Assembly (NCBI GenBank): GCA_039810425.1
Contig: JBDHWW010000053.1
Location: 1-19,128 of the forward strand
DNA: 19,128 bases
Reading direction: 5' to 3'
Source of the DNA: Pseudobdellovibrionaceae bacterium
GTDB taxonomy: Bacteria; Bdellovibrionota; Bdellovibrionia; Bdellovibrionales; Bdellovibrionaceae
The translations under genes and the position numbers were made by a program. The number at the start of each line of letters is the position of its first letter. The first letter of the stretch is position 1. A model generated the notes under the pieces. It was not told where the DNA came from, searched no databases, and worked only from the letters and a program-made list of their open reading frames with translations. Shown here one piece after another: positions 156 to 18,752 of this stretch.

Positions 156-902
156 TTGAAAAAGCTCATTCTGAAATTGTTCGTGGCATTTGTTGTTCTT
201 CCGTCAGTGATTGCCAGTTCGATGTATTGGCTCAACGAAAAAGGTTTTTTCAACATCAGTGAAGTACAAATTGTTCTCGTCGACTCTCCGCAATCTCAAT
301 CGAATTTCTATTCCCCGATGGCCGATAAACTTGAAAAACAAATGCTCGAGTTCAAAGGGCAATCCCTGTGGTCCGTGAAGCTTTCAGAAGTTGTGGGATT
401 GCTCAATTCGCAAAACTGGATTGAGCATCACAGCATCAGTCGCAGCTGGCCGAGCGGCTTGTCGGTGAAAATCAAACCTCACGACATCAAGCTCGTTTAT
501 TTGGGGAAAAACGGAAAGTACATGCCGATCATTTCTGACGGCAGCTTCTTGGACACCGTGGATTCAAAGCAAGCCCCGGACGTCACTTTGCTTGAAGGCG
601 AAAATTTCTTGCAGAAAAAAGAGCTTCGTCAAAAAGCCGTGCAGGTTCTGAAAGAAATTCCGATCGAAGGAACCTTCAGCCGAAAAACAATTTCGGAAAT
701 CAGATATGATCAAAAAGATGGTTTTTCGATGACGATGATGAAGACCGGAATACAGGTCAAGATTGGCGAAGAACAGGTTGGAATTAAAAGTGCTCGAGTC
801 TCACAAGTTGTTGATTATCTTCAGACTCGTCAATTTGACGCACGCGTCATAGACGCCAATCTGTCAAAGAAAGTTCTTGTCAGGTTGCGCAACGATCCCT
901 AA
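156..902 (+). CDS. ftsQ: Cell division protein FtsQ/DivIB
   Basis: 248 aa with a TTG start and SD. Single N-terminal TM helix, POTRA-like segment (NWIEHHSISRSWPSGLSVKIK), C-terminal IDANLSKKVLVR resembling the FtsQ 'iDlR...v' end. Lies directly upstream of ftsA. Confidence 0.88.
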   Translation: MKKLILKLFVAFVVLPSVIASSMYWLNEKGFFNISEVQIVLVDSPQSQSNFYSPMADKLEKQMLEFKGQSLWSVKLSEVVGLLNSQNWIEHHSISRSWPSGLSVKIKPHDIKLVYLGKNGKYMPIISDGSFLDTVDSKQAPDVTLLEGENFLQKKELRQKAVQVLKEIPIEGTFSRKTISEIRYDQKDGFSMTMMKTGIQVKIGEEQVGIKSARVSQVVDYLQTRQFDARVIDANLSKKVLVRLRNDP

Positions 903-1012
903 GCTAAAGTCAAGGCAAACTGAGGTCCAGAGACTTTTGTCTGTCTGAATTCTCTGAAGAATTAGGGAATTAATGAGGACCATTTGGTCAGACTTATTGT
1001 TAGGACTTAAGG

Positions 1013-2275
1013 ATGAGCAACATAAAACCGAAAGCACCGGTGCTGGCTGGCCTTGATATTGGTTCCACGAAAGTTTGTTTTGTCATCGGCACGGTAAATC
1101 CTGAAGGTAAGATTGATGTCGCGGGAGTCGGAACCGCCCCTAATACTGGCATCCGACAAGGCGTCGTCGTTAACATCGAAGCCACAACTGAATCCATCAA
1201 AAAAGCAAAAGAAGAAGCGGAGCTCATGAGCGGTTATTCCGTGAATGAAGTGTGGGTTGGGGTGTCTGGCACGCACATCACTTCTTTTGACTCTAAAGGT
1301 ATGGTTGCGATCAAAAATAAAGAAGTGACCAACCAAGACATTGAGCGTGTGATTGAAGCCGCGAAAGCCGTGGCGGTTCCTGCGGATCGCAATGTCCTTC
1401 ATGTGTTGCCTCGTGAGTATAAAGTCGACGGTCAAGACGGAATCACCGATCCTATTGGGATGTCGGGTGTGCGCTTGGAGGCAAGTGTTCACATCGTGAC
1501 GGGTGGTCACACAGCTCTGCAAAATTCCGTAAAATGTGTTGAGAAGGCCGGCCTTCGTGTCGGCGGTCTTGTTTTGAATCAACTTGCCGCTTCGGCCGCA
1601 GTGTTGAGTGAGGACGAGAAGAATCTTGGCGTCTGCGTTGTGGATATGGGTGGCGGTACTTGTGACGCTGTTTACTTCTCGAATGGTAGCGTGGCTCATA
1701 CATCTATTATTCCGATCGGCGGCCACCACTTCACACACGATGTGGCGGTGGGCTTAAGGACGCCTCAGGTGTCGGCGGAAGACCTCAAGAAAAAATATGG
1801 CTGCGCAATGGCTTCCATGGTGAACGAAACTGAAACCATCGAAGTTGAAGGCGTCGGAGGCCGCAAATCCCGTTTGATCCCACGCAAAGATCTTGCTGAT
1901 GTTTTGGAAGCGCGAGCTGAAGAGACCTTAAACCTCATCGCAAACGATATGCGCATGAGTGGATTATTGCCTATGATGGGATCTGGCTTGGTGCTGACTG
2001 GTGGCGCGAGCCAACTCGATGGCCTGGTTGAAATGGGTGAGTTTATTTTTGATATTCCTGTTCGTCGCGGGGGCCCGAGTAAAGTGGGCGGGCTTATTGA
2101 TGTGGTGAAGTCTGGTGAGTTCTCAGCGGCGGTGGGCTTGTTGTTGTATGGCCTCAGTCAGCGTAAGGATCTGATTGCTCAAAGCCAGCAGGGGCAGGGC
2201 GAAATGATTAATTTGGGCGAGTCTATCGATGGATTGGCGCAAAAAGTAAAAGATTTTTTTGGACAGATTTTTTAA
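1013..2275 (+). CDS. ftsA: Cell division protein FtsA
   Basis: 420 aa actin-like ATPase with AGLDIGSTKV, DPIGMSGVRLE, VVDMGGGT and LVLTGGASQL motifs. Lies between ftsQ and ftsZ. Confidence 0.98.
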   Translation: MSNIKPKAPVLAGLDIGSTKVCFVIGTVNPEGKIDVAGVGTAPNTGIRQGVVVNIEATTESIKKAKEEAELMSGYSVNEVWVGVSGTHITSFDSKGMVAIKNKEVTNQDIERVIEAAKAVAVPADRNVLHVLPREYKVDGQDGITDPIGMSGVRLEASVHIVTGGHTALQNSVKCVEKAGLRVGGLVLNQLAASAAVLSEDEKNLGVCVVDMGGGTCDAVYFSNGSVAHTSIIPIGGHHFTHDVAVGLRTPQVSAEDLKKKYGCAMASMVNETETIEVEGVGGRKSRLIPRKDLADVLEARAEETLNLIANDMRMSGLLPMMGSGLVLTGGASQLDGLVEMGEFIFDIPVRRGGPSKVGGLIDVVKSGEFSAAVGLLLYGLSQRKDLIAQSQQGQGEMINLGESIDGLAQKVKDFFGQIF

Positions 2276-2302
2276 AAAGTTTATCTCTCAAGTGTTTAAT
2301 AG

Positions 2303-2326
2303 TTATCAGCGCAGGGATGCGCATAA
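2303..2326 (+). promoter_or_regulatory. GGA-loop hairpin in the ftsZ leader (CsrA/RsmA-site-like)
   Basis: GCGCA-GGGA-TGCGC at 2309-2322, extendable by TTAT/ATAA with a bulge. Contains CAGGGATG (CAnGGAnG). Lies just upstream of the AGGAGGA SD. Confidence 0.4.
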
Positions 2327-2344
2327 AAGTTTTAGGAGGAGCGA

Positions 2345-4003
2345 ATGTTTGAATTAGAAGAGAATATCAGTATCGGAGCCAACATTAAGGTTGTTGGTGT
2401 CGGTGGCGGCGGTAGCAACGCAGTCACAACCATGATCGAATCAAATATGGGCGGTGTAGAGTTCATCGTAGCAAATACTGATATCCAAGCGTTGAACGCG
2501 AATAAAGCGCCTTCTAAAATTCAATTGGGTCTTGATTTAACAAAAGGTCTTGGTGCAGGAGCCAACCCCGATATCGGTCGTCGTGCGGCGATTGAATCTT
2601 ACAATGAAATCGTCGAAAAACTTGAAGGCGCTGACATGGTTTTCGTCACTGCCGGCATGGGCGGCGGAACTGGTACCGGGGGAGCTCCCATCGTAGCGAA
2701 AATAGCCCGTGAATTGGGCGCGCTTACTATTGGCGTAGTCACTAAGCCTTTCTTCTTCGAAGGTAAAAAACGTTCTAAGCACGCTGACGGAGGTTTGGCG
2801 GAGCTGAAAGAGAACGTGGATACCCTCATAGTGATCCCGAATCAGAAACTTCTTTCTATAGCGACGGAAAAGACGCCTTTGCTCGAGACCTTCAAAAAAG
2901 CGGATGAAGTGCTTTTGCAAGCGGTCAAAGGGATCTCTGATTTGATTAACATCCGTGGTTTGATCAACTTGGACTTCGCGGACATTCGTACCGTCATGGC
3001 GTCTAAAGGGATCGCGATCATGGGGACTGGCACGGCAAAAGGCCAAAACCGCGCTGTCGAGGCGGCGACCGCGGCGATTTCTTCCCCACTTCTCGAGAAC
3101 ATCCGTATCGATGGAGCGACGGGTATTATCGTGAACATCACGGGTGGTTCTGACTTGAGCCTCCTCGAGGTGAACGAAGCAACGATGTTGATTACAGAAG
3201 CTGCGCATGAAGATGCGGAAATCATCTTCGGTGCGGTTATCGATGATAATATGAACGAAGAAGTTCGCGTGACGGTTATCGCAACTGGTTTTGCACAAGA
3301 AGACCGTCAAATGGCTTCTGATACAATCAATCAAATGCAACAGTTCTTGAACGGTACGGGCATCCAGTTTCCTGGGATGAGCGCATCTTCCGGCATGCCT
3401 GGGAACATGAACATGCTGCCGCCAATTCCTGCAATTCCGAACATGCTGCCGCAAATGCCACAGATGCCGGCAATGCCTCAGTATCATCAACCGCAACAAG
3501 TTCCTGTGATGCCAGCGGAGTTGCCGCCGATTCAAACAGTCCAAAGTTCCGTGATGAACTACACTCAAACTGTTGAGCAAACTCAACAGCAAGTTCCGCA
3601 ACAGTTTTACCACGCTCCGGTTCAACAGGCGGCTTCTGTAGTTCCACAAATGCCAATGCAGCAAGAGCAGGTGGCGACGCCAATCGCTCCGATTGCTCAA
3701 CAGCAGGTGGTTCCACAGCAAGCGGTGCTACAAACACCACAAGCTCCAAATCCGGCGGAAGCGGCAATGTCTCCTCGTGATATGTTGATGGCTAAGGCGC
3801 GTGCTTTCAAAGAAAGCCAGGACTTGAAAGCGCGTCATACACAACCAGAACAATTGTCTATGAATGTAGACCATGAGCAGCAGTCTCTCGAAGAGGCCCG
3901 TAAAATGGCTCGTGAGGTGCTGAGCTCTCCATTTTCTGGCCAAAACCTCGAGGTTCCTGCTTTCATCCGCAAGAAACAAGGTTTTGACTTGAATAAAGAA
4001 TAA
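2345..4003 (+). CDS. ftsZ: Cell division protein FtsZ with a long low-complexity C-terminal linker
   Basis: 552 aa with [13 protein letters not shown], the tubulin signature [10 protein letters not shown]7 loop INLDFAD and C-terminal core peptide LEVPAFIRK. Strong SD AGGAGGA. Confidence 0.99.
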
Positions 4004-4794: not shown

Positions 4795-5226
4795 ATGGAA
4801 CTAAAAATCGATAATTGGGAAAGCTTTCTCTACGAATCACGCCCTTTTGCCTATGTCGCAATCGGTACCTACGCGCTCGCGGCAGATAAGCCGAACCTTA
4901 TACTGTTGGCGGCGGCGGCGATTCTGATCTTCTGCGGAATCCTTGTGTTAAGAATGAGATTCAATGCCCGCGCAGGTGCCACCATGGAATCGCTCTATTA
5001 CGAGAGTTTGCCGTTTCTGTATCTTGGTATTGGCGTATACGCCTTGTTTTTTTTAAACTTCACAAAGATCGCCGTGGGCAGTGGGGTGATCTTATTGTTC
5101 TGCGCGACCAAGGTTTTCCAATGGCGAATCCTCAATCGTCGTGCAGTTTTTAGGGTGGTCAGAAATAAACCCACCCCCGAAAAAAAGAAGGCGGAGTCCC
5201 GCCCCGCAAGTCGCCCGCTTGTATAG
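4795..5226 (+). CDS. Small hypothetical 4-TM membrane protein built from two tandem repeats
   Basis: 143 aa with four hydrophobic segments and a basic C-terminal tail. Followed by a terminator. Confidence 0.75.
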   Translation: MELKIDNWESFLYESRPFAYVAIGTYALAADKPNLILLAAAAILIFCGILVLRMRFNARAGATMESLYYESLPFLYLGIGVYALFFLNFTKIAVGSGVILLFCATKVFQWRILNRRAVFRVVRNKPTPEKKKAESRPASRPLV

Positions 5227-5285: not shown

Positions 5286-6011
5286 CTAGAAATTCAAAGT
5301 GTAGGCAATGCTGCCTTGAATGCCAGACAAAGTTGTCTTCAAGTCGGTGCCGTTAATTTCGACCTCTTGGTTCGTGCCGGCTTGTGAAAGGCCTGGAACC
5401 GTGCCGTTTGCTGAGCTTGCCAAGTTTCTTTCGATTGGCAAGTAGCGAAGATTTCCCTCGATACTCAAGCAATGCTCCGGTGTGAAGCAGAAGTCCACGC
5501 CGAGGCCGCCCAATGCACCGAAGGCACTACCGGCGAAAGCAACTGAGTTGCCGCCGGCGCTGATATCGCCGCTCATTCGGCCATAACCAAGACCCATTTG
5601 CATGTAGAATTTAATGAAGCTGTTTTCAAGCGGGTAAAGTCGGAAGATCGGGAAGATCGTCATAGCGGAAAGTTTGTAGTCATAGGAATTACCGCCGCCA
5701 GAACCGGTTGCACTTTGCATAACATATGAAGGTCTGAAGGCGATTGCAAACATCGTCCCGCTGAAACGGTACTGGTACTGCGCAAAGAGCTCGTAGGCAG
5801 AACCCATATCGCCGGTGTCCGCGCCTGACGCCCGGGCCGTTTTAATAAGAGAGTTTACGTCATCTTGGCCTGCGGTTAAAAGGCCCAGCCCGAACTCCAT
5901 GGAGTGGCCACCGCCGCCGCCACGACTGAGCGCGAATGCATTCGGTGCGCCAAATGCCAGAACAAGGACTCCAACGACAGTGGAAAGCATAGATTTTTTA
6001 AATAAAGACAT
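5286..6011 (-). CDS. Outer-membrane beta-barrel protein (OmpA/OmpW-like)
   Basis: Start reassigned to ATG 6011 (SD GGAGGA at 6018-6023 on the minus strand), giving 241 aa. Signal peptide ending ...PNAFA, alternating amphipathic strands (FYMQMGLGYG, GLGVDF, LSIEGNLRY) and a C-terminal aromatic YTLNF typical of BAM substrates. Confidence 0.8.
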   Translation of the reverse strand: MSLFKKSMLSTVVGVLVLAFGAPNAFALSRGGGGGHSMEFGLGLLTAGQDDVNSLIKTARASGADTGDMGSAYELFAQYQYRFSGTMFAIAFRPSYVMQSATGSGGGNSYDYKLSAMTIFPIFRLYPLENSFIKFYMQMGLGYGRMSGDISAGGNSVAFAGSAFGALGGLGVDFCFTPEHCLSIEGNLRYLPIERNLASSANGTVPGLSQAGTNQEVEINGTDLKTTLSGIQGSIAYTLNF

Positions 6012-6037
6012 TTCGTATCCTCCGTGACACATTTTAG

Positions 6038-6692: not shown

Positions 6693-7688
6693 TTAGGTGA
6701 GCCGAGCGCGCCGCTGGCTCAGTAAGGCGGCGGCTTCTTTTGCAAAATAAGTCAGAATCACATCCGCACCGGCACGGCGGATCGCCAGGAGACTTTCCAT
6801 CATCGCTTTTTCGCCGTCCAGCCAGCCATTTGCGGCGGCCGCTTTGATCATCGCATATTCGCCACTTACGTTGTAAGCCGCGACAGGCACGGTGAAGTTC
6901 TGCTTCAGTGACTGAATAATATCCAGGTATGCCAAAGCCGGTTTGACCATGATTATGTCAGCGCCTTCGTTCACATCAAGACCTGCTTCCAGCAAGGCCT
7001 CACGCGAATTGCGTGGATCCATTTGATAAGTTTTCTTATCGCCGAATTTTGGCGCTGAATCGAGAGCATCACGGAAGGGGCCATAGAAGCTCGAAGCATA
7101 TTTCGCGGAGTAAGCAAGAATGCCGGTGTTCTCAAAACCTTCGGCGTCAAGGGCACGCCGGATTTCCCCGACGCGCCCATCCATCATGTCAGACGGCGCG
7201 ACCATGTCGGCTCCCGCGCGAGCTTGAGCCAACGCCATTTTCACTAGCACTTCGATCGTCTCGTCATTGAGGACTTGACCATCGCGAACGATACCGTCAT
7301 GACCGTCACTGGAGTAAGGATCCAACGCGACGTCGGTGATCACGCAAGCCTCCGGAAACTTGTCTTTGATTTTTTTCACCGTTGTCGGCAGAAGGCCCTG
7401 CGAATTGAAAGACTCCTCCGCAGTTGAGTTTTTCAAAGAATCCCTGATGGCGGGAAAGAGCGCGAAGGAATGGACTCCCAAAGTCTGGCATTCGGCTATT
7501 TCTTTAAGTAAGTTGTCGGCACTTAGGCGGAACTGACCCGGCATCGACTTGATCGCGATCTTTTGATCCTGGCCCTCGCACAAAAAGACAGGGTAAATCA
7601 GATTATCTGCGCTGAAGGTGGTTTCAGCGATCATGTTACGGATGGCAGGAGTCCGGCGATTGCGGCGAGGGCGATTGATCATATCCAT
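6693..7688 (-). CDS. hemB: Porphobilinogen synthase (ALA dehydratase), Asp-rich non-zinc type
   Basis: 331 aa with RPRRNR, DVALDPYSSDGHDG, APSDMMDGRV, YSAKYASSFYGPFRDA, MVKPA and AYNVSGEY. Confidence 0.98.
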   Translation of the reverse strand: MDMINRPRRNRRTPAIRNMIAETTFSADNLIYPVFLCEGQDQKIAIKSMPGQFRLSADNLLKEIAECQTLGVHSFALFPAIRDSLKNSTAEESFNSQGLLPTTVKKIKDKFPEACVITDVALDPYSSDGHDGIVRDGQVLNDETIEVLVKMALAQARAGADMVAPSDMMDGRVGEIRRALDAEGFENTGILAYSAKYASSFYGPFRDALDSAPKFGDKKTYQMDPRNSREALLEAGLDVNEGADIIMVKPALAYLDIIQSLKQNFTVPVAAYNVSGEYAMIKAAAANGWLDGEKAMMESLLAIRRAGADVILTYFAKEAAALLSQRRARLT

Positions 7689-7779: not shown

Positions 7780-7802
7780 ATGACAATTCAATGACAATTC
7801 AA
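7780..7802 (+). promoter_or_regulatory. Tandem 11-bp direct repeat containing TGACA-N6-TGACA (OmpR/PhoB-type, HemR-box-like operator)
   Basis: ATGACAATTCA at 7780-7790 and 7791-7801. TGACA half-sites at 7781-7785 and 7792-7796. Lies in the hemB/hemA divergent region, about 30 nt upstream of hemA. Confidence 0.8.
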
Positions 7803-7828
7803 AGCCGAAAATACAGTACATAAGAGGA

Positions 7829-8698
7829 ATGGACGACGTCTCTATTCTCCACCGCCGCGGCCACGGCAAGGCTCTCCCGGAACTGACCGAAGGTTTGGTT
7901 TGGAAGACTTGCTTGCGCCAGATTGCTTTCGTACCCGCGGGTGCGAAAGTGGTTGCTTATGACGAGGGCGATGAGATCTATTCTGGAAAAGATGCCTTCG
8001 CCTTTTTGCTCGAGATCATCTGTGGCTTGCAATCACCCATCGTTGGTGAAACCGAAATCTTCGGTCAGTTTAAAAACTTCGTCGGCACCGCGCTTGAAAA
8101 GAAAACATTACTGACTTTACAGCTTCGAGGTTTCTTCCAGTCGTTGATTCAAACGGCGAAGAGTCTTCGCGCTGAATATCTGGTGGGCTTGGGCTCGCAA
8201 GGTTACGGCAGCCTCGTTCGCAAGCTTGCGAAAAATGATAAAGCAGTGACTTTGCTTGGATCAGGCCAGTTGGTGGAAGAAGTTCTGCCTTGGGTTGCGA
8301 AGGAAAAATCGCTGCAAGTGGTTTGTCGCAATCCTGAGAAAGCACAAAGATTTGTTGAAAAATATCCCGCATTGAAAACCGAGTCGTTTGCCAGTGCACA
8401 AGAAGTTTACCCTTGTGTGGTGGTGGCGGCGCCGCTGACGGATGAAGCGCTTCTTCAATGGTTGAAGTCTTATAAGGTTCAAAAGATTCTTGATCTACGC
8501 GGTGAGCTGGAAAAGCCCGAACTTTTCAAAGATTACCAGTTCATTGGCCTTAAAGACGTTTTCGAGAACATTGAGGAAAATAAGAAAGATCTCAGCCGGA
8601 GAGTTGTTGCTCTCAAGGAATTGGTGCAGAGACGCGCGCAAGAATATTTCGATCGCACTTTGCATCGCCCTTACGGCTGGGAGGATTTGTGCATCTAA
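7829..8698 (+). CDS. hemA: Glutamyl-tRNA reductase, short form
   Basis: 289 aa with catalytic Cys motif KTCLRQ (canonical STCNR), CGLQSPIVGETEIFGQFK (canonical GLDS.v.GE.qI.GQvK) and Rossmann LLGSGQL. First gene of the hem operon. Confidence 0.88.
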   Translation: MDDVSILHRRGHGKALPELTEGLVWKTCLRQIAFVPAGAKVVAYDEGDEIYSGKDAFAFLLEIICGLQSPIVGETEIFGQFKNFVGTALEKKTLLTLQLRGFFQSLIQTAKSLRAEYLVGLGSQGYGSLVRKLAKNDKAVTLLGSGQLVEEVLPWVAKEKSLQVVCRNPEKAQRFVEKYPALKTESFASAQEVYPCVVVAAPLTDEALLQWLKSYKVQKILDLRGELEKPELFKDYQFIGLKDVFENIEENKKDLSRRVVALKELVQRRAQEYFDRTLHRPYGWEDLCI

Positions 8699-10191
8699 AA
8701 AGCCGCATCCGGCTGTCGGCTCGAAAAAGCGACCTCGCACGGTTGCAAGCTTACCAAGTCGGCGAAGCTCTTCAAAAGAAGATCCCTGGAATCGAAATTC
8801 AGTATAACTTCCGCGAATCCCTCGGAGACAAGAATCTCAGCGACCCTCTCTGGCGCATGCCCGAGAAGGGTGTCTTCACCGAGGACTTCGTGCAGGATCT
8901 GCTAGATGGCAAGACCGATTTGGTAGTTCACTCGTGGAAGGATCTGCCGACGGCTCCGCGGATTGGCACGAAGATCGCTGCAACTTTGCCACGTGCCGAT
9001 CAGCGTGATTTGTTTTTGTTTAAAAAATCTTCTGAAACGCGTGTTTGCTCTGTTGGTGAACTGAATGTGTTGAGCTCTTCGCCTCGCCGTGCTTACAATC
9101 TTGAAGGATTTTTAAAAGATCATCTTCCCTTCAGCTTGAACAAGGTTCAATTCCATAACGTCCGTGGCAATATTCAAACGCGTGTGCGGAAGATGCTTGA
9201 AGATGCGTCCGTGGACGGCTTGATCGTCGCGAAAGCGGCGCTGGATCGCTTGCTGACGGTGAAGGCTGCCGAGTTTAATGAAACCCGGCAGTTCTTGCGG
9301 GATACTTTGCAAGGGCTCCAATGGATGGTTTTGCCATTATCGGTGAACCCGAATGCCGCTGCACAAGGGGCGCTGGCGGTTGAAATCAAAGAAGGCCGCG
9401 AAGACCTTGAACAGGTTCTCACGCAAATTGATTGCCGTGAAACATTCACCGCTGCCCAGAAAGAGCGCGATGTGCTCGCGAGCTTTGGCGGCGGCTGTCA
9501 TCAAAAGATCGGTGTCGCGGTCTTGAAACGTCCTTATGGGGATGTGTTTTTCTTAAAGGGTCTCACGGACGCGGGCCAAGTTTTGAGTGAGAAGTCATTG
9601 CTCCGGGCATATCCGCCAAAGAAGTTTGCGGCGGACAAACTCGCGAGTTCAAAAGAGCTCAAGGTCGAACGAACGCATTCATTGAAGTTTGAAATTCCGG
9701 CCGATGTTCAAGGCTTGTGGGTGGCAAAGGCCGAAGCTTTTCCTGAAACATTGTTGTTTAGCGGCCTTGTGTGGACGGCGGGCCTTCAAACCTGGAAGAA
9801 AATCGCCAAACTTGGTGTTTGGGTGAATGGCTCCAATGAAGGTCTGGGTGAAGACGAAATCCCGCAAATCGAAACTTTATTTGGTTCAGTGGTTCGCTGG
9901 GCTAAATTAACTCATAAAGAGGCTCCGCAAGGGCCTGATAAGGATGTCGTTGCGACATATCAAGTCGACGTTCATACCGAGAGCTGGAGTATAGGTGCCC
10001 GTGAGGTGTTCTATTGGAATAGCGGGTCGCAGTTTTTGGCCGCCCTAACAAAAGAGCCTGGGCTGCGGCACAAAAGACATGCCTGCGGGCCGGGAAATAC
10101 GTATAAAATACTACGCGACCAGTTGGGTCCCCAGGCCCCTATTGAAATTTATTTGGATGAAGAGGATTGGAGAAAATCATGCAGTCTTTAG
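8689..10191 (+). CDS. hemC: Hydroxymethylbilane synthase with a C-terminal HemD-like extension (putative HemC-HemD bifunctional enzyme)
   Basis: 500 aa, GTG start. N-terminal ~300 aa carry [46 protein letters not shown] and cofactor Cys in GGGCHQ. About 190 extra C-terminal residues follow. Confidence 0.93.
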
Positions 10192-11462
10192 AGCTATTTG
10201 AACGAGCAAAGAAAGTCGCCCCCGGGGGGGTGCATTCTCCGGTGCGTTCTTTCAAAGGTTTGGACCATCATCCCATTTTCTTCAAAAAAGCTCAGGGTGC
10301 TTACCTGACAAGTGTTGAAGATAAACAGTACATCGATTTCTGCCAAAGCTTCGGGCCACTTATTTTGGGTCACCGTGATACCGATGTCGCTGAAGAAGTT
10401 CATCGCATGATAGATACGGCTTGGACGTTCGGTGCCTGCGAAATCTATTCTTTGGAACTTGCTGAGTGGATGACTCAAAGTTTGCCTTGGATGGAAAAGC
10501 TTCGTTTTGTATCTTCAGGCACCGAAGCGGTGATGAGCGCGTTGCGTGTGGCGCGTGCGGCGACGAATCGTACTAAGATTTTGAAATTTGAAGGTTGTTA
10601 TCACGGTCACGCGGATCAGTTGCTTGTGAAGGTGGGCAGCGGTCTTGCCGGCACCGCCGCTTCTAGCAGTGCGGGAATCTCAGCTGAAATCGCTTCAACG
10701 ACTTTGGTGACTCCGCTGGATGACATGGCAAGGCTGCGTGAAGTGTTCACGGCTCAAGGGAAAGATATCGCGGCGGTGATCATCGAGCCATTGCCTGCGA
10801 ATTACGGCCTCTTGGTTCAGCGCCAAGAGTTCTTGAGTGAAATTAAAAATCTTTGTAGAGCCAATGGCAGCTTGCTGATCTTTGACGAAGTGATCTCGGG
10901 TTTCAGAACCGCATTTGGCGGGATGGTGGAGCTCTCAGGCATTCGGCCGGATCTTGTGACTTACGGAAAAGTGATTGGTGGCGGTTTCCCTGTCGGTTGC
11001 TACGGAGGCCGTCAGGATTTGATGGACCTCGTTGCGCCAAATGGCAACGTATACCAAGCCGGTACTTTGAGCGCGAACCCGGTGGGAATGCGCGCGGGTC
11101 TTAAAACTTTGCAAAAAATGAAGTCTCTGAATGGCTGGAAAGTTCTGAATCAAAGAACGACGGTCTTCTGCCAGAAATTGCAAAAGGGCTTTGATGAAAT
11201 CAAAGCGCCGGTGCAAATTTCTTCGCACAGTTCATTGTTCTGGATCCACGGTCGCGTGAGCGACCCGATCCGTACGATTGAACAGATCCCACAAGGCCAA
11301 GGCGAGAACTTCAAAAAGTTGTTTTTAAGATGTTTGGATAAAGGTGTTTATCTTGCGCCCAATGCCTACGAAGTCGGTTTCTTATCGATGGCCCATACGG
11401 ATGTCATTCTGGATGAAGCGGCGAGCAAAATCTTGCAAGCTTCCCGTGAGGTTTTCGGATAG
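10179..11462 (+). CDS. hemL: Glutamate-1-semialdehyde 2,1-aminomutase
   Basis: Start reassigned to ATG 10179 (GGAG at 10169-10172). Motifs [33 protein letters not shown] lysine in [13 protein letters not shown], and [10 protein letters not shown]. Confidence 0.97.
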
Positions 11463-12310
11463 TGTGGAAAGTTAAAACCCTTCTTGCCACTGTTTGGTTC
11501 TTTTTTGTCGTCTCCCTCGTCGGCTGGTGGTGGATTTATTTCATGAACTCGATTGTAGCGGCGAGTGGCCAAGAAATGAACCGCACCCACCGCATGTTCA
11601 TGTGGGAGGGCAGCATTCTTCTGGCGGCGCTCGTTATCGGGGGGCTTGCTTTGATTTTCCTTTCCTATCGTGATGAAAAACGGCATGAACAGCTCAGAAC
11701 TTTCTTTGCGACTTTCAGTCACGATATCAAAACCTCTATCACGCGCTTGCGCCTGCAGGCGGAAGTGCTGGAGGAGGACGGTGCCTCTCAGCAAAGCCCA
11801 GTGTTACAGCGCCTGATTAGAGATATCTCTCGTTTGGACTTGCAGCTGGAGAATTCATTGCTGCTTTCTACCAGTGACGCGCAAAAGGTACTGATCGAAA
11901 GAATGTCTTTATCAAAGCTTATTGAGTCATTGCGAATTCAGTGGAGTGAACTTGATTTTCGCTTGCAAAAAGAAGCGGAGGTCGTGGCGGATAGACACGC
12001 GATGGTCAGCGTGCTTCGTAATTTGATTCACAATGCGGTATTGCATGGACAAGCGACATCCATTGAGATCTCTGTGAGAGCTGTCGGTTCGGAGCAAATA
12101 GAAATCGCAATTCAAGACAATGGCAAAGGTTATGGCGGTAATGCGGGTTTGTTGGGGGCGGAAGTGCTTCCCTCAAAGAGCGAGCGTGGTAGTGGCATTG
12201 GTTTGTACCTCTGCCGCCGTTTAGTTAAAAAAATGGGCGGCGATCTTCGTTTTGAACATGCGACACCTGGCCTTCGCGCTATTGTTCAGATCTCGGGGAG
12301 ACCTCTATGA
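11462..12310 (+). CDS. Two-component sensor histidine kinase (Leptospira HemK-like by context)
   Basis: 282 aa, GTG start overlapping the hemL TAG. Two TM helices with a very short loop. H-box FSHDIKT, N-box NLIHNAVLH, G1 DNGKG and G2 GSGIGL. Confidence 0.93.
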   Translation: MWKVKTLLATVWFFFVVSLVGWWWIYFMNSIVAASGQEMNRTHRMFMWEGSILLAALVIGGLALIFLSYRDEKRHEQLRTFFATFSHDIKTSITRLRLQAEVLEEDGASQQSPVLQRLIRDISRLDLQLENSLLLSTSDAQKVLIERMSLSKLIESLRIQWSELDFRLQKEAEVVADRHAMVSVLRNLIHNAVLHGQATSIEISVRAVGSEQIEIAIQDNGKGYGGNAGLLGAEVLPSKSERGSGIGLYLCRRLVKKMGGDLRFEHATPGLRAIVQISGRPL

Positions 12311-12978
12311 GAAAAATTCTTCTCTTAGAAGATGATGTCTCGTTGGGAGAGACGCTGAAAGAGCGCCTTTCGAAAGAGTACAATGTGTTCTGGGTACAGA
12401 ACGTGCGCGCAGCAAAAGACCTTCTCGGTAAAGAGTCCAGTCTGGATCTCGTGATCCTAGACTTGGGTTTGCCTGATGGCACGGGGTTTGACGTCGCTGA
12501 ATTTATCCGCACACAAGATCAGCACCCGTTATTTATTTTCCTGACGGCGCAAGCGGATGCCGAGGCACGTTTGAAGGGGTTTGAACTCGGGGCGGAAGAG
12601 TTTATTCCAAAGCCTTTTCATCTGAAGGAACTGCTCATTCGGGTAAAACATGTTTTGGAGCTCCACGCCCCTCAGGCGGAAATTTCTATTGAGGGCACCG
12701 TGATTAATTTTACGACATTGTCGGTGAAAAGGCGCGATGGACCGATCGAGTATCCGCCTTTGACGGATCTTAAGATTTTACAGTTATTGATTGAACGCGC
12801 ACCTCGCGTGGTCAGTCGCGATGAGATGCTGAACGAAGTCTGGGGCCAGGATAAAAATCCGAGTCATCGGACGATTGATAACACCATCGTCCGCCTTCGC
12901 CAGTTGTTCGGCGACAAAGGCGAAGAATACATCCGCTCCGTTCGCGGTATCGGATACCAATGGTTTAAAGAGAATTAA
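12307..12978 (+). CDS. OmpR/PhoB-family response regulator (Leptospira HemR-like by context)
   Basis: 223 aa, ATGA overlap with the kinase. Receiver domain LLLEDD...ILDLGLPDGTG...FLTA...KPF and winged helix VSRDEMLNEVWG...RTIDNTIVRLR...IRSVRGIGY. Confidence 0.95.
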   Translation: MRKILLLEDDVSLGETLKERLSKEYNVFWVQNVRAAKDLLGKESSLDLVILDLGLPDGTGFDVAEFIRTQDQHPLFIFLTAQADAEARLKGFELGAEEFIPKPFHLKELLIRVKHVLELHAPQAEISIEGTVINFTTLSVKRRDGPIEYPPLTDLKILQLLIERAPRVVSRDEMLNEVWGQDKNPSHRTIDNTIVRLRQLFGDKGEEYIRSVRGIGYQWFKEN

Positions 12979-12990
12979 GGAAGTCGTACT

Positions 12991-14013
12991 ATGTCGAATA
13001 TTCTTTTTCAAAATGCCCTTCTTCGTAAACCACAAAATACGCCGCCGATTTGGTTCATGCGACAGGCGGGCCGGTATCATAAGCACTACCAAAACCTGCG
13101 TAAGGACCATAGCTTTGACGATCTTTGTAAAAAGCCAGAGCTTGCGGCACAAGTCGCCCTGGGCCCGGTGGAAGATTTCGATTTCGACGTCTCGATTCTT
13201 TTTAGCGATATCTTGTATCCATTGCAGGCGCTTGGTATGGGCTTGGAGTACACGGACCATGGTCCTCGCCTGGGCTTCCAGCTGACACCTGGCAATATTC
13301 AAAATCTGAAGTCCGGTGAAGATGTTGTGTCATTTATGAACTTCCAGAAAGCAGCTCTCCAGCAGACCCGCGCGGTATTGCCGAAGAGTAAATCTTTGAT
13401 CGGCTTTATCGGGGGCCCTTGGACTTTGTTTGTCTACGCAGTTGAGGGATCCCATGCCGGTAGCTTGACACAATCTAAGAAGTTAATTTCGCTCTTCCCG
13501 GAGTTTTTAAAGAAAATGTTACCATTACTGAAAGAAAACATCCGCTTGCAGTTATCTGGTGGTGCTGAAGTAGTGATGATCTTCGATACGGCGGCGGGTG
13601 AGTTGTCTCCGCTGAATTTCCAGAAATGGATTCAGCCCGTGTTGAAAGAGCTCAATGCTTTGGCGCCGGGAAAAATCGGCTACTACTCTAAGAGCACGCA
13701 AGCGGTGTACTTCAACCAAGAATTTTTGAACTTGCCGTGGGCGGGAGTGGGTTTTGACCACCGCTGGAATCTGACGAAGTGCTTCGGCTTGGTTAAGCAC
13801 GGTTTTGTGCAAGGCAATTTCGATCAAAGCTTGCTGTTTTTAGAAGAAGCTCAGCTTCAAGAGGAGCTGGGAATTTATTTGGAAAATATGAAGTCGCTGT
13901 CTGTTGAGGAACGAGCAGGATGGGTGAGTGGGCTGGGCCACGGCGTCTTGCCAAAAACTCCGGAAGGCAATGTTCGCCTTTTTGTCGAGACGGTGCGAAA
14001 GGTGTTTGCATGA
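12991..14013 (+). CDS. hemE: Uroporphyrinogen decarboxylase
   Basis: 340 aa with PIWFMRQAGRY, ILFSDIL, LIGFIGGPWTL, IFDT, QGNFD and LGHGVLP. Confidence 0.98.
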   Translation: MSNILFQNALLRKPQNTPPIWFMRQAGRYHKHYQNLRKDHSFDDLCKKPELAAQVALGPVEDFDFDVSILFSDILYPLQALGMGLEYTDHGPRLGFQLTPGNIQNLKSGEDVVSFMNFQKAALQQTRAVLPKSKSLIGFIGGPWTLFVYAVEGSHAGSLTQSKKLISLFPEFLKKMLPLLKENIRLQLSGGAEVVMIFDTAAGELSPLNFQKWIQPVLKELNALAPGKIGYYSKSTQAVYFNQEFLNLPWAGVGFDHRWNLTKCFGLVKHGFVQGNFDQSLLFLEEAQLQEELGIYLENMKSLSVEERAGWVSGLGHGVLPKTPEGNVRLFVETVRKVFA

Positions 14014-15374
14014 GTTCAAGCTCTGATATTTCAAAGCTCATCGCGAAATACGATGTGCAGGTACCTCGTTATACGAGTTATCCTACGGTGCCTTATTGGG
14101 AAGAGGCCCCCCGCCACGATCAGTGGGTGGATCATCTTCGTCAAACATTGCAGGATGCGGACAGCCGCTGGTCGATGTACATGCATCTTCCGTTCTGTGA
14201 AAGCCTTTGCACTTTCTGTGGTTGCAACAACAGCATCACGAAAGATCACAAGAAAGAAGCGCCTTATATTGATTCCCTGGTGAAGGAATGGAATGCCTAC
14301 AAAATACAAGTGCCGGAGCTGATGCAAAGTCGGCTGACGCACCTGCATTTGGGCGGCGGGACTCCGACATTTTTCTCACCTGAAAGCTTGAAGACTTTGA
14401 TTTCCGCGATTTGGAACGACGTCAAGAAGGACCCTCACCATTTCGAAGCGTCCATTGAAGTCGACCCCCGCAGAACATCGGTAGAGCACTTGAAAGTTTT
14501 AAAGGAACTTGGCTTTGACCGTGTCAGCATGGGGGTCCAGGATTTTAATCCTGAAGTTCAGCGCTTGGTCAATCGTATTCAGCCGTACGCGATCACTGCG
14601 AAACTTACTGAAGAAGCTCGAGCAATGGGTTTTCGTTCCGTGAACTATGACCTCATTTATGGTTTGGCAAAGCAAACAGTGGAGTCTTTCGCTGAGACCG
14701 CAAAGCTGACTGTGGCTTTACGCCCGGACCGTATTGCGCTTTATAGCTTTGCTTTGGTTCCATGGATTAAGCCGGCGCAGCGTTTGTTCAAGGATGAAGA
14801 TCTTCCAGCCGGTGCGGAGAAGCGTCGGCTTTATGAAATTGCGCGCGAGATTCTGATGAACGCGGGTTACGTTGAAATCGGTATGGATCACTTCGCGTTG
14901 CCGTCGGAAGCTCTTAGCATGGCGGCGCAAGCGAACAAGCTTCATAGAAACTTCATGGGGTATACAGATCAGAAGAGCGATGTTCTTCTCGGTTTGGGGG
15001 TCAGCGCCATTTCTGAGACTCCGTGGAGTTTCCATCAAAATGAAAAGTTACTCAATATTTACCAGGAGCGTGTGGCTAAGGGGGAAATCCCAACCCATCG
15101 CGGTCACGTTCACACTGATGAAGATCGTGAACGTCGTCAGCAGATCCTGACCTTGATGACCCAGTTGCAAGTTGGCCTGACCAGTCCTTCGCAAGCGGCG
15201 GCGGCCAAGAGCTTCTTGGGGGAGATGATGAAAGACGGTCTGGTTGAAGTGACTGAGAAAGAAATGAGCGTCACCGAGAAAGGGCGTCCTTTCTTGCGCA
15301 ATGCTTGCGTTTTTTTTGATGAGCGTCTTCGTAACAAGCAACCTCAGACCCAAGTTTTCTCGAAATCTATATGA
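14010..15374 (+). CDS. hemN: Oxygen-independent coproporphyrinogen III dehydrogenase (radical SAM)
   Basis: Start reassigned to ATG 14010 (ATGA overlap with hemE), giving 454 aa. Motifs PRYTSYP, HLPFCESLCTFCGC (CxxxCxxC), GGGTPT, SMGVQDF, IGMDHF and RNFMGY. Confidence 0.97.
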   Translation: MSSSSDISKLIAKYDVQVPRYTSYPTVPYWEEAPRHDQWVDHLRQTLQDADSRWSMYMHLPFCESLCTFCGCNNSITKDHKKEAPYIDSLVKEWNAYKIQVPELMQSRLTHLHLGGGTPTFFSPESLKTLISAIWNDVKKDPHHFEASIEVDPRRTSVEHLKVLKELGFDRVSMGVQDFNPEVQRLVNRIQPYAITAKLTEEARAMGFRSVNYDLIYGLAKQTVESFAETAKLTVALRPDRIALYSFALVPWIKPAQRLFKDEDLPAGAEKRRLYEIAREILMNAGYVEIGMDHFALPSEALSMAAQANKLHRNFMGYTDQKSDVLLGLGVSAISETPWSFHQNEKLLNIYQERVAKGEIPTHRGHVHTDEDRERRQQILTLMTQLQVGLTSPSQAAAAKSFLGEMMKDGLVEVTEKEMSVTEKGRPFLRNACVFFDERLRNKQPQTQVFSKSI

Positions 15375-16576
15375 AGAAAAAAGTGGTTATTGTCGGCGGA
15401 GGTTTTTCAGGTCTGGTGACGGCTTACTACTTAAGCCGCCTTGGGATTGAAGTCGATCTTCATGAAGCAAGCTTCCGTTTGGGAGGGTTGCTTGGCAGTG
15501 AAAGGCTTGAATCGGGTCTGGTTGAAACCGCCGCCAATGGGTTTATTTTGAATGACGTCTTGGTTGAGTTGCTGGAGGACATCGGGCTTGAATGCATTCG
15601 GCCACTTAAAGGCGCGCGTAAAAGATTTATCTTCCGTGGCGGATTTAAGCGGTGGCCATTGAATCTCATCGAGACCCTCGGTCTGATTTTGAAGATTCTA
15701 CCGCGCATTTTCTTTCGTCGGTCCTCCTTTGAACCGAAAGTGGATGAAACTGTTTGGGCGTGGGGCCTTCGTTGCCTGACCAGAGCCGCCACGAGGTATT
15801 TTTTAAGCCCGGCCCTCCAAGGAATCTATGCGGGTGATACCCATAGAATGAGTGCGGAGCTTATTCTTGGCCCGATGTTTGGTGGCAAGAAGCAAAAATA
15901 TCGCGGAACGGTGTCTTTCAAAAGAGGTATGGGCGAGTTCATCGCGGCGATCGAGAAGAAGCTCGTTCATCAGGGCGTGAAGATCCACTTGAATTCGTTC
16001 TATCAAATCGAAAACCTGGAAACCCCACACATCGTTTGCGTGTCGGCGGCCGCAGCGTCAAAAGCACTAGGGAACGTCGCGCCTGAAGTGGGTGCGCGGC
16101 TTTCAAAAATTGAGGTGTTGCCAGTCTTGAGTACGACGGTCTTTTTTGAAAATCCGCGCTTTAAGATCGAAGGCTTCGGCGTCTTATTCCCGGACGATCA
16201 GCGGTATCGCGTGCTAGGGATTTTGTCTCCGACTCGTATTTTTGAAAATCGCGGTCCGGGTTACAGCGAAACCTGGATTTTCGGTGGCGCTCATTCACCG
16301 GAAGTTCTTGAGAAGTCCAATGAGCATATTTTGGAACTCATTCAAAGTGAACGCACCCGTATTTTCGGACTGACTGATAAAGTGCGCGAATATCGTATGC
16401 ATCCTTGGCCGAAGGCATTGCCACATTATACTTTGGAACATAAAAAACTCCTTGGTGAGCTGCAACTGCCGAAGAACTTGTATTTGAATGGCAACTATAT
16501 GGGCGCCATCGGTCTCAGCAGAATTCTTATCCGCAGCAAGGAGCTTGCCCAGAAAGTTAGCGATGGCAGTAACTAA
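15371..16576 (+). CDS. hemY: FAD-dependent protoporphyrinogen oxidase (HemY/PgoX type, often annotated hemG)
   Basis: 401 aa with IVGGGFSGL, EASFRLGG, ETAANGF, GIYAGD, GFGVL, ALPHY and GNYMGAIGL. Lies between hemN and hemH. Confidence 0.9.
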   Translation: MKKKVVIVGGGFSGLVTAYYLSRLGIEVDLHEASFRLGGLLGSERLESGLVETAANGFILNDVLVELLEDIGLECIRPLKGARKRFIFRGGFKRWPLNLIETLGLILKILPRIFFRRSSFEPKVDETVWAWGLRCLTRAATRYFLSPALQGIYAGDTHRMSAELILGPMFGGKKQKYRGTVSFKRGMGEFIAAIEKKLVHQGVKIHLNSFYQIENLETPHIVCVSAAAASKALGNVAPEVGARLSKIEVLPVLSTTVFFENPRFKIEGFGVLFPDDQRYRVLGILSPTRIFENRGPGYSETWIFGGAHSPEVLEKSNEHILELIQSERTRIFGLTDKVREYRMHPWPKALPHYTLEHKKLLGELQLPKNLYLNGNYMGAIGLSRILIRSKELAQKVSDGSN

Positions 16577-17534
16577 GGGTGTTTTGCTGATCAATATCGG
16601 CACTCCGGATTCTCCAGCGGCCAAAGATGTTGCCGTTTACCTCAGAGAATTTCTCATGGATGAGGAAATCCTACCGATTCCCGTATCCTTTCGCTGGATT
16701 CTTGTTCACATTGGTATTGTCTGGCGACGCGCACCTGTTTCAGCCGGAAAATATCAATCGATTTGGACCTCACAAGGTTCTCCGTTGATGATTCACTCAC
16801 TGGCAGCGAAAAAGAATCTGCAAGCGGAGCTCGGTGATGACTACGCGGTCGAAATCGGTATGCGCTACGGAAATCCGTCGGTTGAGAGTGCCTTGCTCAG
16901 GTTCGAAAGTCTTGGTGTGAAAGAGGTATTTATTTTACCTTTGTATCCGCAGTATTGTCGGGCCACGACGGAGTCTTCATTCAAGCAAGTGGAAGAGGTG
17001 AGGGAAAGGCGGGGGCTCACATGCCATTTTCATAGGTTGCAATCGTTCTGGTCGAACCATCAATTCATTCGTGCCTTGGCTGAAGAGGCTAAAAAAAGTC
17101 TGCAAGGCAAAAAGATCGACTACTACTTGATGACCTATCACGGGCTGCCGGAAAGCCAGAACGGCAAAATGGATCCGATGGATTCGTATAAGCTCCGTTG
17201 TTATGACACCTCAAAGCTCTTGGCCGAAGCGATGGGGCTTGGTCCGCAGCAGTGGGGCGTGTCTTTTCAATCCCGTGTGGGCGTTGAGACGTGGATTAAA
17301 CCGTACACAGACGAAGAGTTGAAATCTCTGCCGGTCCGGGGAGTAAAGCATCTTGCGGTCTTGTGCCCAAGCTTTGTCGCGGACTGCTTAGAGACTGTTG
17401 AAGAGATTGGGATTGAGGGGAAAAAAACTTTTCTGCACGCGGGGGGCGAGAACTACTATCTTGTGCCCTGTTTGAATGGCCGGGCCGATTATCTGAAGAT
17501 TCTCATTCAAGAGCTAGAAAATACTGAAAAGTAA
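16563..17534 (+). CDS. hemH: Ferrochelatase
   Basis: Start reassigned to ATG 16563, giving 323 aa. Motifs GVLLINIGTP, GSPL, GMRYGNP, LPLYPQY, YHGLP, FQSRVG..WIKPYT, FVADCLETVEEI and VPCLN. Confidence 0.97.
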   Translation: MAVTKGVLLINIGTPDSPAAKDVAVYLREFLMDEEILPIPVSFRWILVHIGIVWRRAPVSAGKYQSIWTSQGSPLMIHSLAAKKNLQAELGDDYAVEIGMRYGNPSVESALLRFESLGVKEVFILPLYPQYCRATTESSFKQVEEVRERRGLTCHFHRLQSFWSNHQFIRALAEEAKKSLQGKKIDYYLMTYHGLPESQNGKMDPMDSYKLRCYDTSKLLAEAMGLGPQQWGVSFQSRVGVETWIKPYTDEELKSLPVRGVKHLAVLCPSFVADCLETVEEIGIEGKKTFLHAGGENYYLVPCLNGRADYLKILIQELENTEK

Positions 17535-18752
17535 TTATCTCTTCCAGACTTGCATGCAAGCGACGCGATCAACTCGGCGTCCTTCGATGCTGGGATAAAT
17601 GCGAGTGTATCCCCAGGGATCTCGTGAACCGGAGTTGTAATCATAGATATTTTTTCTAATCTCAGAAGTACGGAGTTCAAATTTGCTTGGGAAGAGCACG
17701 GCCTCGGTGGCGATACGGACGGTGTTTTCCCAAATTGCTTGTTCGTCTATTCCAGGTTTGAAGTTTTGCCATGAAGATTTATTCGGATCCGAGGGCGGGC
17801 ACAGTGCTTTCTGTAAGCTGCCGTTGATTTTACCGCCTTTGTGATATTTCATCCAAACGTTAAACTGCGAAGGTGTTGTGACCACACGGGCGATGTCATC
17901 GACGGCGTCGTTGTGACTAGCGTCAGAGCCCAGGAATGTTTTTTTTATGTTATCCGGAGCACCGGCCCGGTTAGTCGCGATCTTTGCAATCGCCATGGGA
18001 TATTGCAAACCATGCTTATAGCAACCGGCCATTTCACCGTAAAGAGTCCGCGCCAAGGCGTCGATGTCGGCAACCTGCTGCAAGGTCACCGGCTTGCCCT
18101 CGGGGCCAAGAATTTTGGGCATATTGCTCTGAAGGCTCGGCAAAACCATGCTATCGAAAGCATTGCCGGCAGGATATCTCGACGGTGGCTTTGCAGGATC
18201 AATCACGCATTGACCAACAACGGCGCTGAGCGATTTCGCGATAGCGTTGACACTTTGGTTGCCAGTGAATTTTTGCACCAGGGCCATTTTCTTTTTTACG
18301 TCAATGATCGCCTGATTCGGATCACCAGGGGGGCAGTCCAGCCCAGGCTTACTGTTGCTGTTATCTTCGCCGAAGAAAGTCTTGTTCTTTGTCTTAGACA
18401 GATAAGAAGCGTCGACCCAGCCCTGGCCACTCTTCTTGTATATGACGCCCTTCACGGTTCGTTCATACGTAAAGTTGACAAAAACGAACTCTTCGGTTTC
18501 CATCTTGCCTGTGTAAGGGTCTTCGACTTTCATCTTTTTGCGCGCAGAAGTAATTTCAATCTTTGCTTTGTTATCGAGCCAGCCGACAGGGTGACAGATT
18601 GAACTTTTTTTACAAGTCTTCCAGTTATAGCCGGGGTTTGTGAAAACGGAAACGATCTGGTTGTCTTCGACGTCGAGATAGGCAGTTTGTTCAAGGGACC
18701 AGGCATTCAGAGATATCAGCAGTATCACAACTAAAACTGGAAGCTTCATCAT
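17535..18752 (-). CDS. Secreted protein with a C-terminal SleB/CwlJ-like (Hydrolase_2) cell-wall hydrolase domain
   Basis: 405 aa with signal peptide MKLPVLVVILLISLNAWS and an SH3-like GWVDASYL. The C-terminal half has DIDALARTLYGEM...AIAKIATNRA...IARVVTTPSQFNVW. Confidence 0.7.
   Translation of the reverse strand: MMKLPVLVVILLISLNAWSLEQTAYLDVEDNQIVSVFTNPGYNWKTCKKSSICHPVGWLDNKAKIEITSARKKMKVEDPYTGKMETEEFVFVNFTYERTVKGVIYKKSGQGWVDASYLSKTKNKTFFGEDNSNSKPGLDCPPGDPNQAIIDVKKKMALVQKFTGNQSVNAIAKSLSAVVGQCVIDPAKPPSRYPAGNAFDSMVLPSLQSNMPKILGPEGKPVTLQQVADIDALARTLYGEMAGCYKHGLQYPMAIAKIATNRAGAPDNIKKTFLGSDASHNDAVDDIARVVTTPSQFNVWMKYHKGGKINGSLQKALCPPSDPNKSSWQNFKPGIDEQAIWENTVRIATEAVLFPSKFELRTSEIRKNIYDYNSGSRDPWGYTRIYPSIEGRRVDRVACMQVWKR

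Follow-up and report, generated by a model that had tools for sequence, protein, structure and literature searches.

What controls haem synthesis in a relative of Bdellovibrio whose haem genes are arranged much like those of Leptospira? We addressed this question in contig JBDHWW010000053.1 of a Pseudobdellovibrionaceae bacterium (GenBank assembly GCA_039810425.1; genome G000, 3.54 Mb, 99.9% complete), which was analyzed over its entire length of 19,128 nucleotides (nt) and is referred to below as the window. It carries nine genes on the plus strand in the order hemA-hemC/D-hemL-kinase-regulator-hemE-hemN-hemY-hemH, an order given in a first-pass annotation and confirmed here by open reading frame (ORF) and family scans (Table 1). 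The locus is a real HemKR-controlled haem operon of a known system, not one of a new kind, and we consider it highly probable, from its sequence and by analogy with Leptospira, that it is a self-contained operon under negative feedback by an orthologue of the HemKR kinase-regulator pair. Seven of the eight gene junctions overlap, the exception being a 12-nt gap between the regulator gene and hemE, and the guanine-plus-cytosine content of the operon (0.49-0.51) is at the level of the genome (0.49).

The kinase is composed of two membrane helices (hydropathy peaks near residues 7-25 and 46-67), joined by a loop of about 20 residues, and of HisKA and HATPase domains only, with no cytoplasmic sensor domain. 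By alignment, H87 is the phospho-acceptor and T91 the phosphatase residue, and D52 is the acceptor in the regulator; the equivalent residues of L. biflexa, H98, T102 and D53, have been tested in the Leptospira studies (PMC2266917, PMC11426443). The Leptospira pairs (Hklep/Rrlep), LB014/LB015 of L. interrogans and LEPBIa1423/1422 of L. biflexa, likewise include a small two-helix HisKA kinase with a histidine and a threonine four residues further on, although the loop is shorter here than in Leptospira. Among named proteins, those closest to the kinase come from Bdellovibrio and Pseudobdellovibrionaceae (best 70-71% identity). When the L. interrogans proteins were queried against the source genome, the window regulator was the best match to HemR (217 vs. 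116 bits for the next) and the window kinase the best match to its kinase (156 vs. 61 bits). In a search of a plasmid collection, the top two matches to the regulator were L. interrogans records with 52-53% identity, with the others listed at 37% or less. Its best match in the PDB was 4q7e, which we take to be the receiver domain of L. biflexa HemR. In a regulator tree that included 14 other OmpR-type proteins, 12 of them from the source genome, the HemR-type proteins of Bdellovibrionota, Leptospira, Acidobacteriota and Bacteroidota formed one clade (100/99) apart from these, within which one further Bacteroidota paralogue is placed. On these reciprocal best matches, the regulator identity and the common clade, the pair is an orthologue of HemKR, as the first-pass annotation had proposed.

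Across the operon, identities to the L. interrogans proteins are 28% for HemA, 39% for HemC/D (full length), 61% for HemL, 31% for the kinase, 53% for the regulator, 55% for HemE, 51% for HemN, 34% for HemY and 29% for HemH. L. interrogans shares the position of the pair between hemL and hemE, the short HemA and the fused HemC/D, but its order is hemA-hemC/D-hemB-hemL-kinase-regulator-hemE-hemN-hemY with hemH on the opposite strand, whereas here hemB is divergent and belongs to another lineage, and hemH lies within the operon. The Leptospira-like order claimed earlier is thus similar, including the placement of the pair, without being identical.

The upstream element claimed earlier is also present. 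The box TGACAATTCAATGACA, an exact copy of TGACA-N6-TGACA, lies in the 140-nt hemB-hemA intergenic region, 32 nt ahead of the hemA ATG (37 nt in L. interrogans, where the box is also exact), and is the sole match in the window when up to one mismatch is allowed. It sits within a perfect 11-nt tandem repeat. The interval first assigned to the locus leaves out both the box (7781-7796) and the divergent hemB (6693-7688, minus strand). The hexamer TACATA, a putative -10 element, begins 20 nt past the box and ends 6 nt ahead of the ATG; judged from its position, the hemA mRNA would be leaderless or nearly so, its leader absent or very short. The pho box, recognized by regulators of the PhoB/OmpR type, has two direct-repeat half-sites that recur with an 11-nt period; they stand in for the -35 element and precede the -10. 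The box here resembles it in its two half-sites, 11-nt period and position ahead of the -10, and differs in the half-site itself; the regulator has the recognition helix RTIDN, and all listed NCBIfam PhoB/OmpR models scored below cut-off. We predict that the box is the site of the phosphorylated regulator, at the -35 position.

The box is accepted as real because it is conserved across related loci, not because it is rare in the genome. Of 301 Bdellovibrionota genomes sampled, 95 contain a match to the regulator (E 1e-45) and 129 a match to a sister-type query (E 1e-40), family f22 contributing 65 of its 74 to the latter; in families f15, f16, f18, f19 and f23 of this sample neither regulator query found a match. 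We fetched 40 related loci around regulator matches, picked for spread, and all 40 contain hemL, kinase, regulator and hemE. In the 38 that show hemA, a box within 450 nt upstream is exact in 33 and present with at most one mismatch in all 38, while boxes with spacers of 3-5 or 7-9 nt occur before hemA in none. The cis-element is shared between Leptospira and Bdellovibrionota, as had been suggested. In every group, most loci have a TAnnnT hexamer that begins 19-21 nt past the box, and the start codon mostly follows the box by 31-37 nt, a geometry that would suit an activator site replacing the -35 element. Several Bdellovibrionota families have hemB between hemC/D and hemL, as in Leptospira.

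In one Bdellovibrionota genome, loss of the pair coincides with loss of the box. Genome G261 (97% complete) has an operon hemA-hemC/D-hemL-hemE (locus L367) with neither the kinase-regulator pair nor the box, and a regulator match is absent from this genome as a whole; it is a natural joint loss of pair and box. It is one of eight genomes missed by the first regulator survey, the other seven of which retain both. In the loci of family f22 (L191-L206), the first half-site reads CTACA in 11 of 15, together with a distinct regulator clade, and it is possible that the operator changed together with its regulator. A 0.9-Mb genome with a completeness score of 96% (G258, locus L365) retains hemA-hemC/D-hemL-kinase-regulator-hemE and an exact box.

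The first-pass annotation had treated the module as a feature of Spirochaetes and Bdellovibrionota, but it occurs in Acidobacteriota and Bacteroidota as well. A species-genome scan with a mixed regulator alignment returned at least 80 loci, 78 of them with Bacteroidota titles; in Sphingobacteriaceae the order is hemA-hemC/D-hemB-hemL-kinase-regulator-TPR (tetratricopeptide repeat) gene-hemE-hemJ. A box with at most one mismatch was found in 27 of 31 Bacteroidota loci with hemA (the four misses being two loci without upstream DNA and two with two mismatches at the same place), compared with 15 of 2000 random windows. Among 201 sampled Bacteroidota genomes, 32 contain the regulator, often apart from haem genes. 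We compared 15 Bacteroidota genomes with the regulator and 15 without, HemA being found in 25 of them; of the 12 regulator-less loci, two were left out, one for want of upstream DNA and one because it was not extracted. All 13 loci with the regulator have the box before hemA and none of the 10 without it do, a contrast that the nominal p value overstates because the genomes are related; the "without" class was set by an E-value cut-off of 1e-60. Boxed Bacteroidota loci number 42, and in 31 of them the Bacteroidetes promoter element TAnnTTTG starts 20-21 nt past the box. In three regulator-bearing Bacteroidota genomes, box and promoter element also stand before a gene for a PD40 beta-propeller protein (L232:1557-2633, L233:375-1475, L234:349-1476), a candidate second target of the regulator.

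A metagenome scan likewise returned at least 80 loci, many of which have hemA-hemC/D-hemB-hemL-kinase-regulator-hemE-hemN-hemY-hemH with an exact box; NCBI labels on these proteins or close cluster members include Pyrinomonadaceae, Thermoanaerobaculia and Acidobacteria. All 14 Pyrinomonadaceae-type loci with upstream DNA have an exact box, and the -10-like element 19-21 nt past it recurs in Acidobacteriota and Leptospira. Overall, the HemKR module is an old, widespread one that has travelled between phyla in one block. Among the papers that we found, HemKR has been studied solely in Leptospira, and the comparison shows it to be a general haem-feedback module of bacteria whose operator is portable. 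Bdellovibrio, Pedobacter and Mucilaginibacter are harmless hosts in which its ligand and mechanism can be tested.

The hem-box was defined in Leptospira, where 5-aminolaevulinic acid (ALA) sets off the L. biflexa kinase's phosphatase activity and external ALA turns the system off (PMC11426443). By extension from L. biflexa, the kinase would autophosphorylate by default at H87 and pass the phosphate to D52 of the regulator. With both TGACA half-sites bound in tandem by the phosphorylated regulator at the -35 position, the hemA promoter would be activated and would drive the entire operon, the pair included. A build-up of ALA or a downstream porphyrin would act through the membrane part of the kinase to switch it to a phosphatase (T91), and transcription would drop. 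The periplasmic loop of the Leptospira kinase can be replaced without loss of function (PMC2266917). Among 62 aligned kinases, E49 never varies, and 91-96% retain W22, W23 and M45; these membrane residues, conserved across four phyla, would suit sensing within the membrane, and the membrane helices yield candidate sensing residues.

Several points weigh against this reading. The source genome contains three exact boxes where 3.8 are expected, no excess over chance, and the other two lie within an ORF and across an opposite-strand start codon. TGACA resembles the -35 hexamer, and the -10 of the window is a weak match that lacks the final T of TAnnnT. Related genomes are non-independent samples, which applies to the counts among Bdellovibrionota as well, and the cut-off dependence of the Bacteroidota contrast counts here too. 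In Leptospira itself, ALA effects in L. biflexa are modest, hemA was not significantly changed in an L. biflexa double knockout under standard growth (PMC11426443), and the L. interrogans regulator did not complement an L. biflexa mutant (PMC2266917). This last failure indicates that orthologues need not be interchangeable. Since the double knockout spared hemA, unchanged hem transcription in a regulator knockout, once proposed among the grounds for rejecting HemKR control, would be an unsafe criterion. A wider regulon in the source genome was considered and dropped: a relaxed box plus -10 pattern occurs at eight sites, compared with none for the reversed pattern, only the hemA site is exact, and the remaining seven can be explained by the resemblance of the box to a -35 element. 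The regulon looks narrow, comprising the hemA operon and perhaps the divergent hemB.

The linkage of the pair to haem genes had been thought unreported for predatory bacteria, but Louvel et al. (2008) already stated in one sentence, with data not shown, that it holds in pathogenic Leptospira and B. bacteriovorus (PMC2266917); the paper gives no box, tree or experiment for Bdellovibrio. Imelio et al. (2024) do not mention Bdellovibrio (PMC11426443), and our search, which mostly did not extend to subscription journals, found no literature on HemKR outside Leptospira or on Bd3447, Bd3449, Bd3450 or Bd3451. These belong to Bd3446-Bd3456 of B. bacteriovorus HD100, which has the same gene order and gene sizes and the same 10-nt overlap of the first two genes (Karunker et al. 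2013; PMC3627812). By position, size and overlap, we equate Bd3446, annotated as hypothetical, with hemA.

Could the system instead read the prey? Bdellovibrio grows in the periplasm of its prey, which exposes the kinase to prey metabolites, and HemKR might have been repurposed to sense prey ALA, porphyrins or haem and shut down the predator's own synthesis. The response of L. biflexa to external ALA and the retention of the regulator by 33 of the 38 genomes sampled from the family are in line with this, but we regard it as unlikely. The nine genes of the HD100 operon are 2- to 7-fold up in the growth phase inside prey relative to the attack phase, in a comparison at a single time point that is confounded by growth (PMC3627812 Table S1). 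Attack/growth values in reads per kilobase per million mapped reads (RPKM) are 112/803 for Bd3446, 49/123 for hemC, 59/128 for hemL, 22/94 for the kinase, 31/64 for the regulator (not significant after correction), 24/69 for hemE, 40/124 for hemN, 16/70 for Bd3455 and 24/60 for hemH. The operon is higher, not off, inside prey at that time point, and the earlier suggestion of a switch set by prey-derived tetrapyrroles is left unsupported. The source genome has no match to PF01126 (haem oxygenase) or TIGR01785 (TonB-dependent haem receptor), other haem-degrading families and exbB/exbD not having been searched; the L. biflexa targets hmuO and a TonB-dependent receptor appear to lack counterparts here. 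Since the circuit is also present in Acidobacteriota, Bacteroidota and Leptospira, a predatory explanation is unneeded. With neither receptor nor oxygenase found, it is simpler to assume de novo haem synthesis that is subject to ordinary feedback. A variant in which HemK senses prey ALA or porphyrins within the membrane (W22, W23, M45, E49) and tunes haem synthesis accordingly, the Leptospira circuit deriving from early Bdellovibrionia, seems to us equally doubtful. If it were true, the near single-operon regulon would make this the simplest system for finding the ligand of the HemK family. In the HD100 growth phase, the Bd3446 transcript is about 6.5 times that of the next gene (803 vs. 123 RPKM; PMC3627812), a hint of attenuation, or of differential decay, past hemA.

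Repression of hemA by the regulator is considerably less probable still. The box would then cover the -35 element, its second half-site being itself close to a -35 hexamer in sequence, and the bound regulator would block RNA polymerase; TGACA indeed supplies five bases of TTGACA, a weak minus-strand promoter-like site (9 of 12 bases) toward hemB overlaps the box, and in L. biflexa HemR reportedly represses hmuO (PMC11426443). However, the distance of 19-21 nt from the box to the -10 exceeds a sigma-70 spacer and suits an activator replacing the -35. Sites of PhoB-type activators do replace the -35 element. The same geometry is found before hemA of L. interrogans, and activation of hemA is reported for L. 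biflexa. Furthermore, Bacteroidota have the box ahead of a promoter type lacking a TTGACA element.

How the operon came to be shared was addressed with trees of concatenated HemC/D-HemL-HemE-HemN (34 of 58 rows, after near-duplicates and short rows were dropped; several rows are of atypical composition). In the IQ-TREE enzyme tree, a clade with 100/100 support unites Bdellovibrionales-type, Leptospira and acidobacterial rows to the exclusion of Bacteroidota and the other Bdellovibrionota, and monophyly of the 24 Bdellovibrionota rows is rejected (approximately unbiased test, p-AU 2e-7, LG+G4). Under a site-heterogeneous model with 21 rows, the three-group clade has an approximate likelihood-ratio support (SH-aLRT) of 100, and the acidobacteria nest among the Bdellovibrionales-type rows (98) with Leptospira as sister outside. 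The kinase-regulator tree and both IQ-TREE enzyme trees place Leptospira as sister; a position nested within the Bdellovibrionales type, seen in an early regulator-only tree and a FastTree enzyme tree, was dropped, and the exact placement of Leptospira is unstable between trees. Because the enzyme trees reject monophyly of Bdellovibrionota, transfer between phyla, which the first-pass annotation had thought probable, is supported, while its expectation that Leptospira would be the nearest neighbour outside the phylum is not, as the acidobacterial copies nest closer. Acidobacteriota probably received the module from a Bdellovibrionia-type donor. For Leptospira, represented by a single named operon plus partial loci from metagenomes, the presence of the module across several Bdellovibrionota families would favour a Bdellovibrionota donor; the Leptospira and Acidobacteriota loci come from plasmid or metagenome records. 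Vertical descent from a distant ancestor followed by many losses, to which the age of the family, its divergent Bacteroidota branch and the separate clades of several Bdellovibrionota families would lend themselves, is largely refuted by the three-group enzyme clade and the rejected monophyly, and is the least probable of the alternatives.

Among the enzymes, HemA combines a TCxR motif and a Rossmann GxG motif with a conserved C-terminal GWED motif; T27, C28 and R30 are invariant across 52 rows, as is GxG. It scored 46 against a TIGR01035 cut-off of 210, and family scans found no match to the GlutR_dimer domain in it. This short divergent form is common to Leptospira, the L. interrogans protein also having 289 amino acids (aa). 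Nearly all short forms of Bdellovibrionota, Leptospira and Acidobacteriota end (8674-8698 in the window) in the motif P-x-G-W-[ED]-[DE]-L, in many cases with a Cys after it, and the long Bacteroidota form lacks this motif; it may be a stand-in for the dimerization domain or a regulatory tag. Locus L208 (G047) encodes an 802-aa HemA-HemC fusion.

HEM4 (PF02602), the family expected of a separate hemD, has no match in the HemC/D tail or anywhere in the source genome, in agreement with the claim that no separate hemD exists. The HemC/D model (predicted local distance difference test, pLDDT, 94) has a porphobilinogen deaminase at residues 1-306 (Z 28.4 to 1ah5), and residues 312-499 align to P. 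aeruginosa HemD (4es6; Z 9.5, 183 residues, root-mean-square deviation 3.7, 9% identity). The fusion very probably supplies the HemD function, judged from this predicted fold, and the bifunctional HemC/D claimed earlier is upheld to that extent. The HemD match came from a wide VIA structure search; Foldseek with the full model listed deaminases, binding proteins and other folds, with no HemD among the matches listed, and a single-sequence fold of the tail was discarded (pLDDT 41). HEM4 was found in Bacteroidota HemC/D tails (E 2e-22 and 3e-27) and went unmatched in those of the window, Leptospira and four other Bdellovibrionota proteins, and a profile comparison of the two kinds of tail gave a weak match (probability 5.8%, E 0.0065). 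The HemC/D proteins of L. interrogans and Sphingobacteriaceae have, as here, a deaminase followed by a HemD-fold domain in a single chain. The "hypothetical" short HemA proteins and the Pfam-negative HemD tails can now be named.

HemB of the window is 38% identical to that of L. interrogans and 54% to a Sphingobacteriaceae HemB. In a hemB tree of 35 rows from these loci only, the divergent hemB of Bdellovibrionaceae groups with the Sphingobacteriaceae type, and a second clade unites the in-operon hemB genes of other Bdellovibrionota, Leptospira and Acidobacteriota, which suggests that hemB was replaced in Bdellovibrionaceae. Neither HemF (PF01218) nor ChdC/HemQ (PF06778) has a match in the source genome, and the haem route therefore appears to be HemN-HemY-HemH. 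An organism of an aerobic family thus seems to depend on the oxygen-independent HemN; one distant HemN-like paralogue is encoded on contig C1.

Table 1. Features of the haem locus, in window coordinates, with the basis of each assignment.
Feature	Position	Strand	Basis
hemB, porphobilinogen synthase	6693..7688	-	PF00490, NF006762 above cut-off
hem-box TGACA-N6-TGACA	7781..7796	+	sequence match; conservation before hemA
putative -10 hexamer TACATA	7817..7822	+	weak match; position relative to box
hemA, 289-aa divergent glutamyl-tRNA reductase	7829..8698	+	PF05201; TIGR01035 below cut-off
hemC/D fusion, 500 aa	8689..10191	+	PF01379; TIGR00212 above cut-off; HemD fold predicted in tail
hemL, glutamate-1-semialdehyde aminomutase	10167..11462	+	NF000818 above cut-off; start possibly ATG at 10179
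HemK-type sensor kinase, 282 aa	11462..12310	+	HisKA + HATPase domains
HemR-type OmpR/PhoB regulator, 223 aa	12307..12978	+	53% to L. interrogans HemR; tree
hemE, uroporphyrinogen decarboxylase	12991..14013	+	PF01208; 55% to L. interrogans
hemN, oxygen-independent coproporphyrinogen III oxidase	14010..15374	+	TIGR00538 above cut-off
hemY, protoporphyrinogen oxidase	15371..16576	+	TIGR00562 above cut-off
hemH, ferrochelatase	16563..17534	+	PF00762, TIGR00109 above cut-off

Among the neighbouring genes, 17535-18752 (minus strand) encodes a 405-aa protein with a signal-like N-terminus, whose stop codon directly adjoins that of hemH; it has no Pfam or NCBIfam match, and its C-terminal half resembles cell-wall hydrolases. 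Two proteins without a Pfam match are encoded at 4795-5226 (143 aa, a membrane protein with an internal duplication) and at 5286-6032 (248 aa, outer-membrane-barrel-like). Positions 156-4003 hold ftsQ-ftsA-ftsZ, named from their translations, and the 552-aa FtsZ has a very long linker rich in Gln, Pro and Met.

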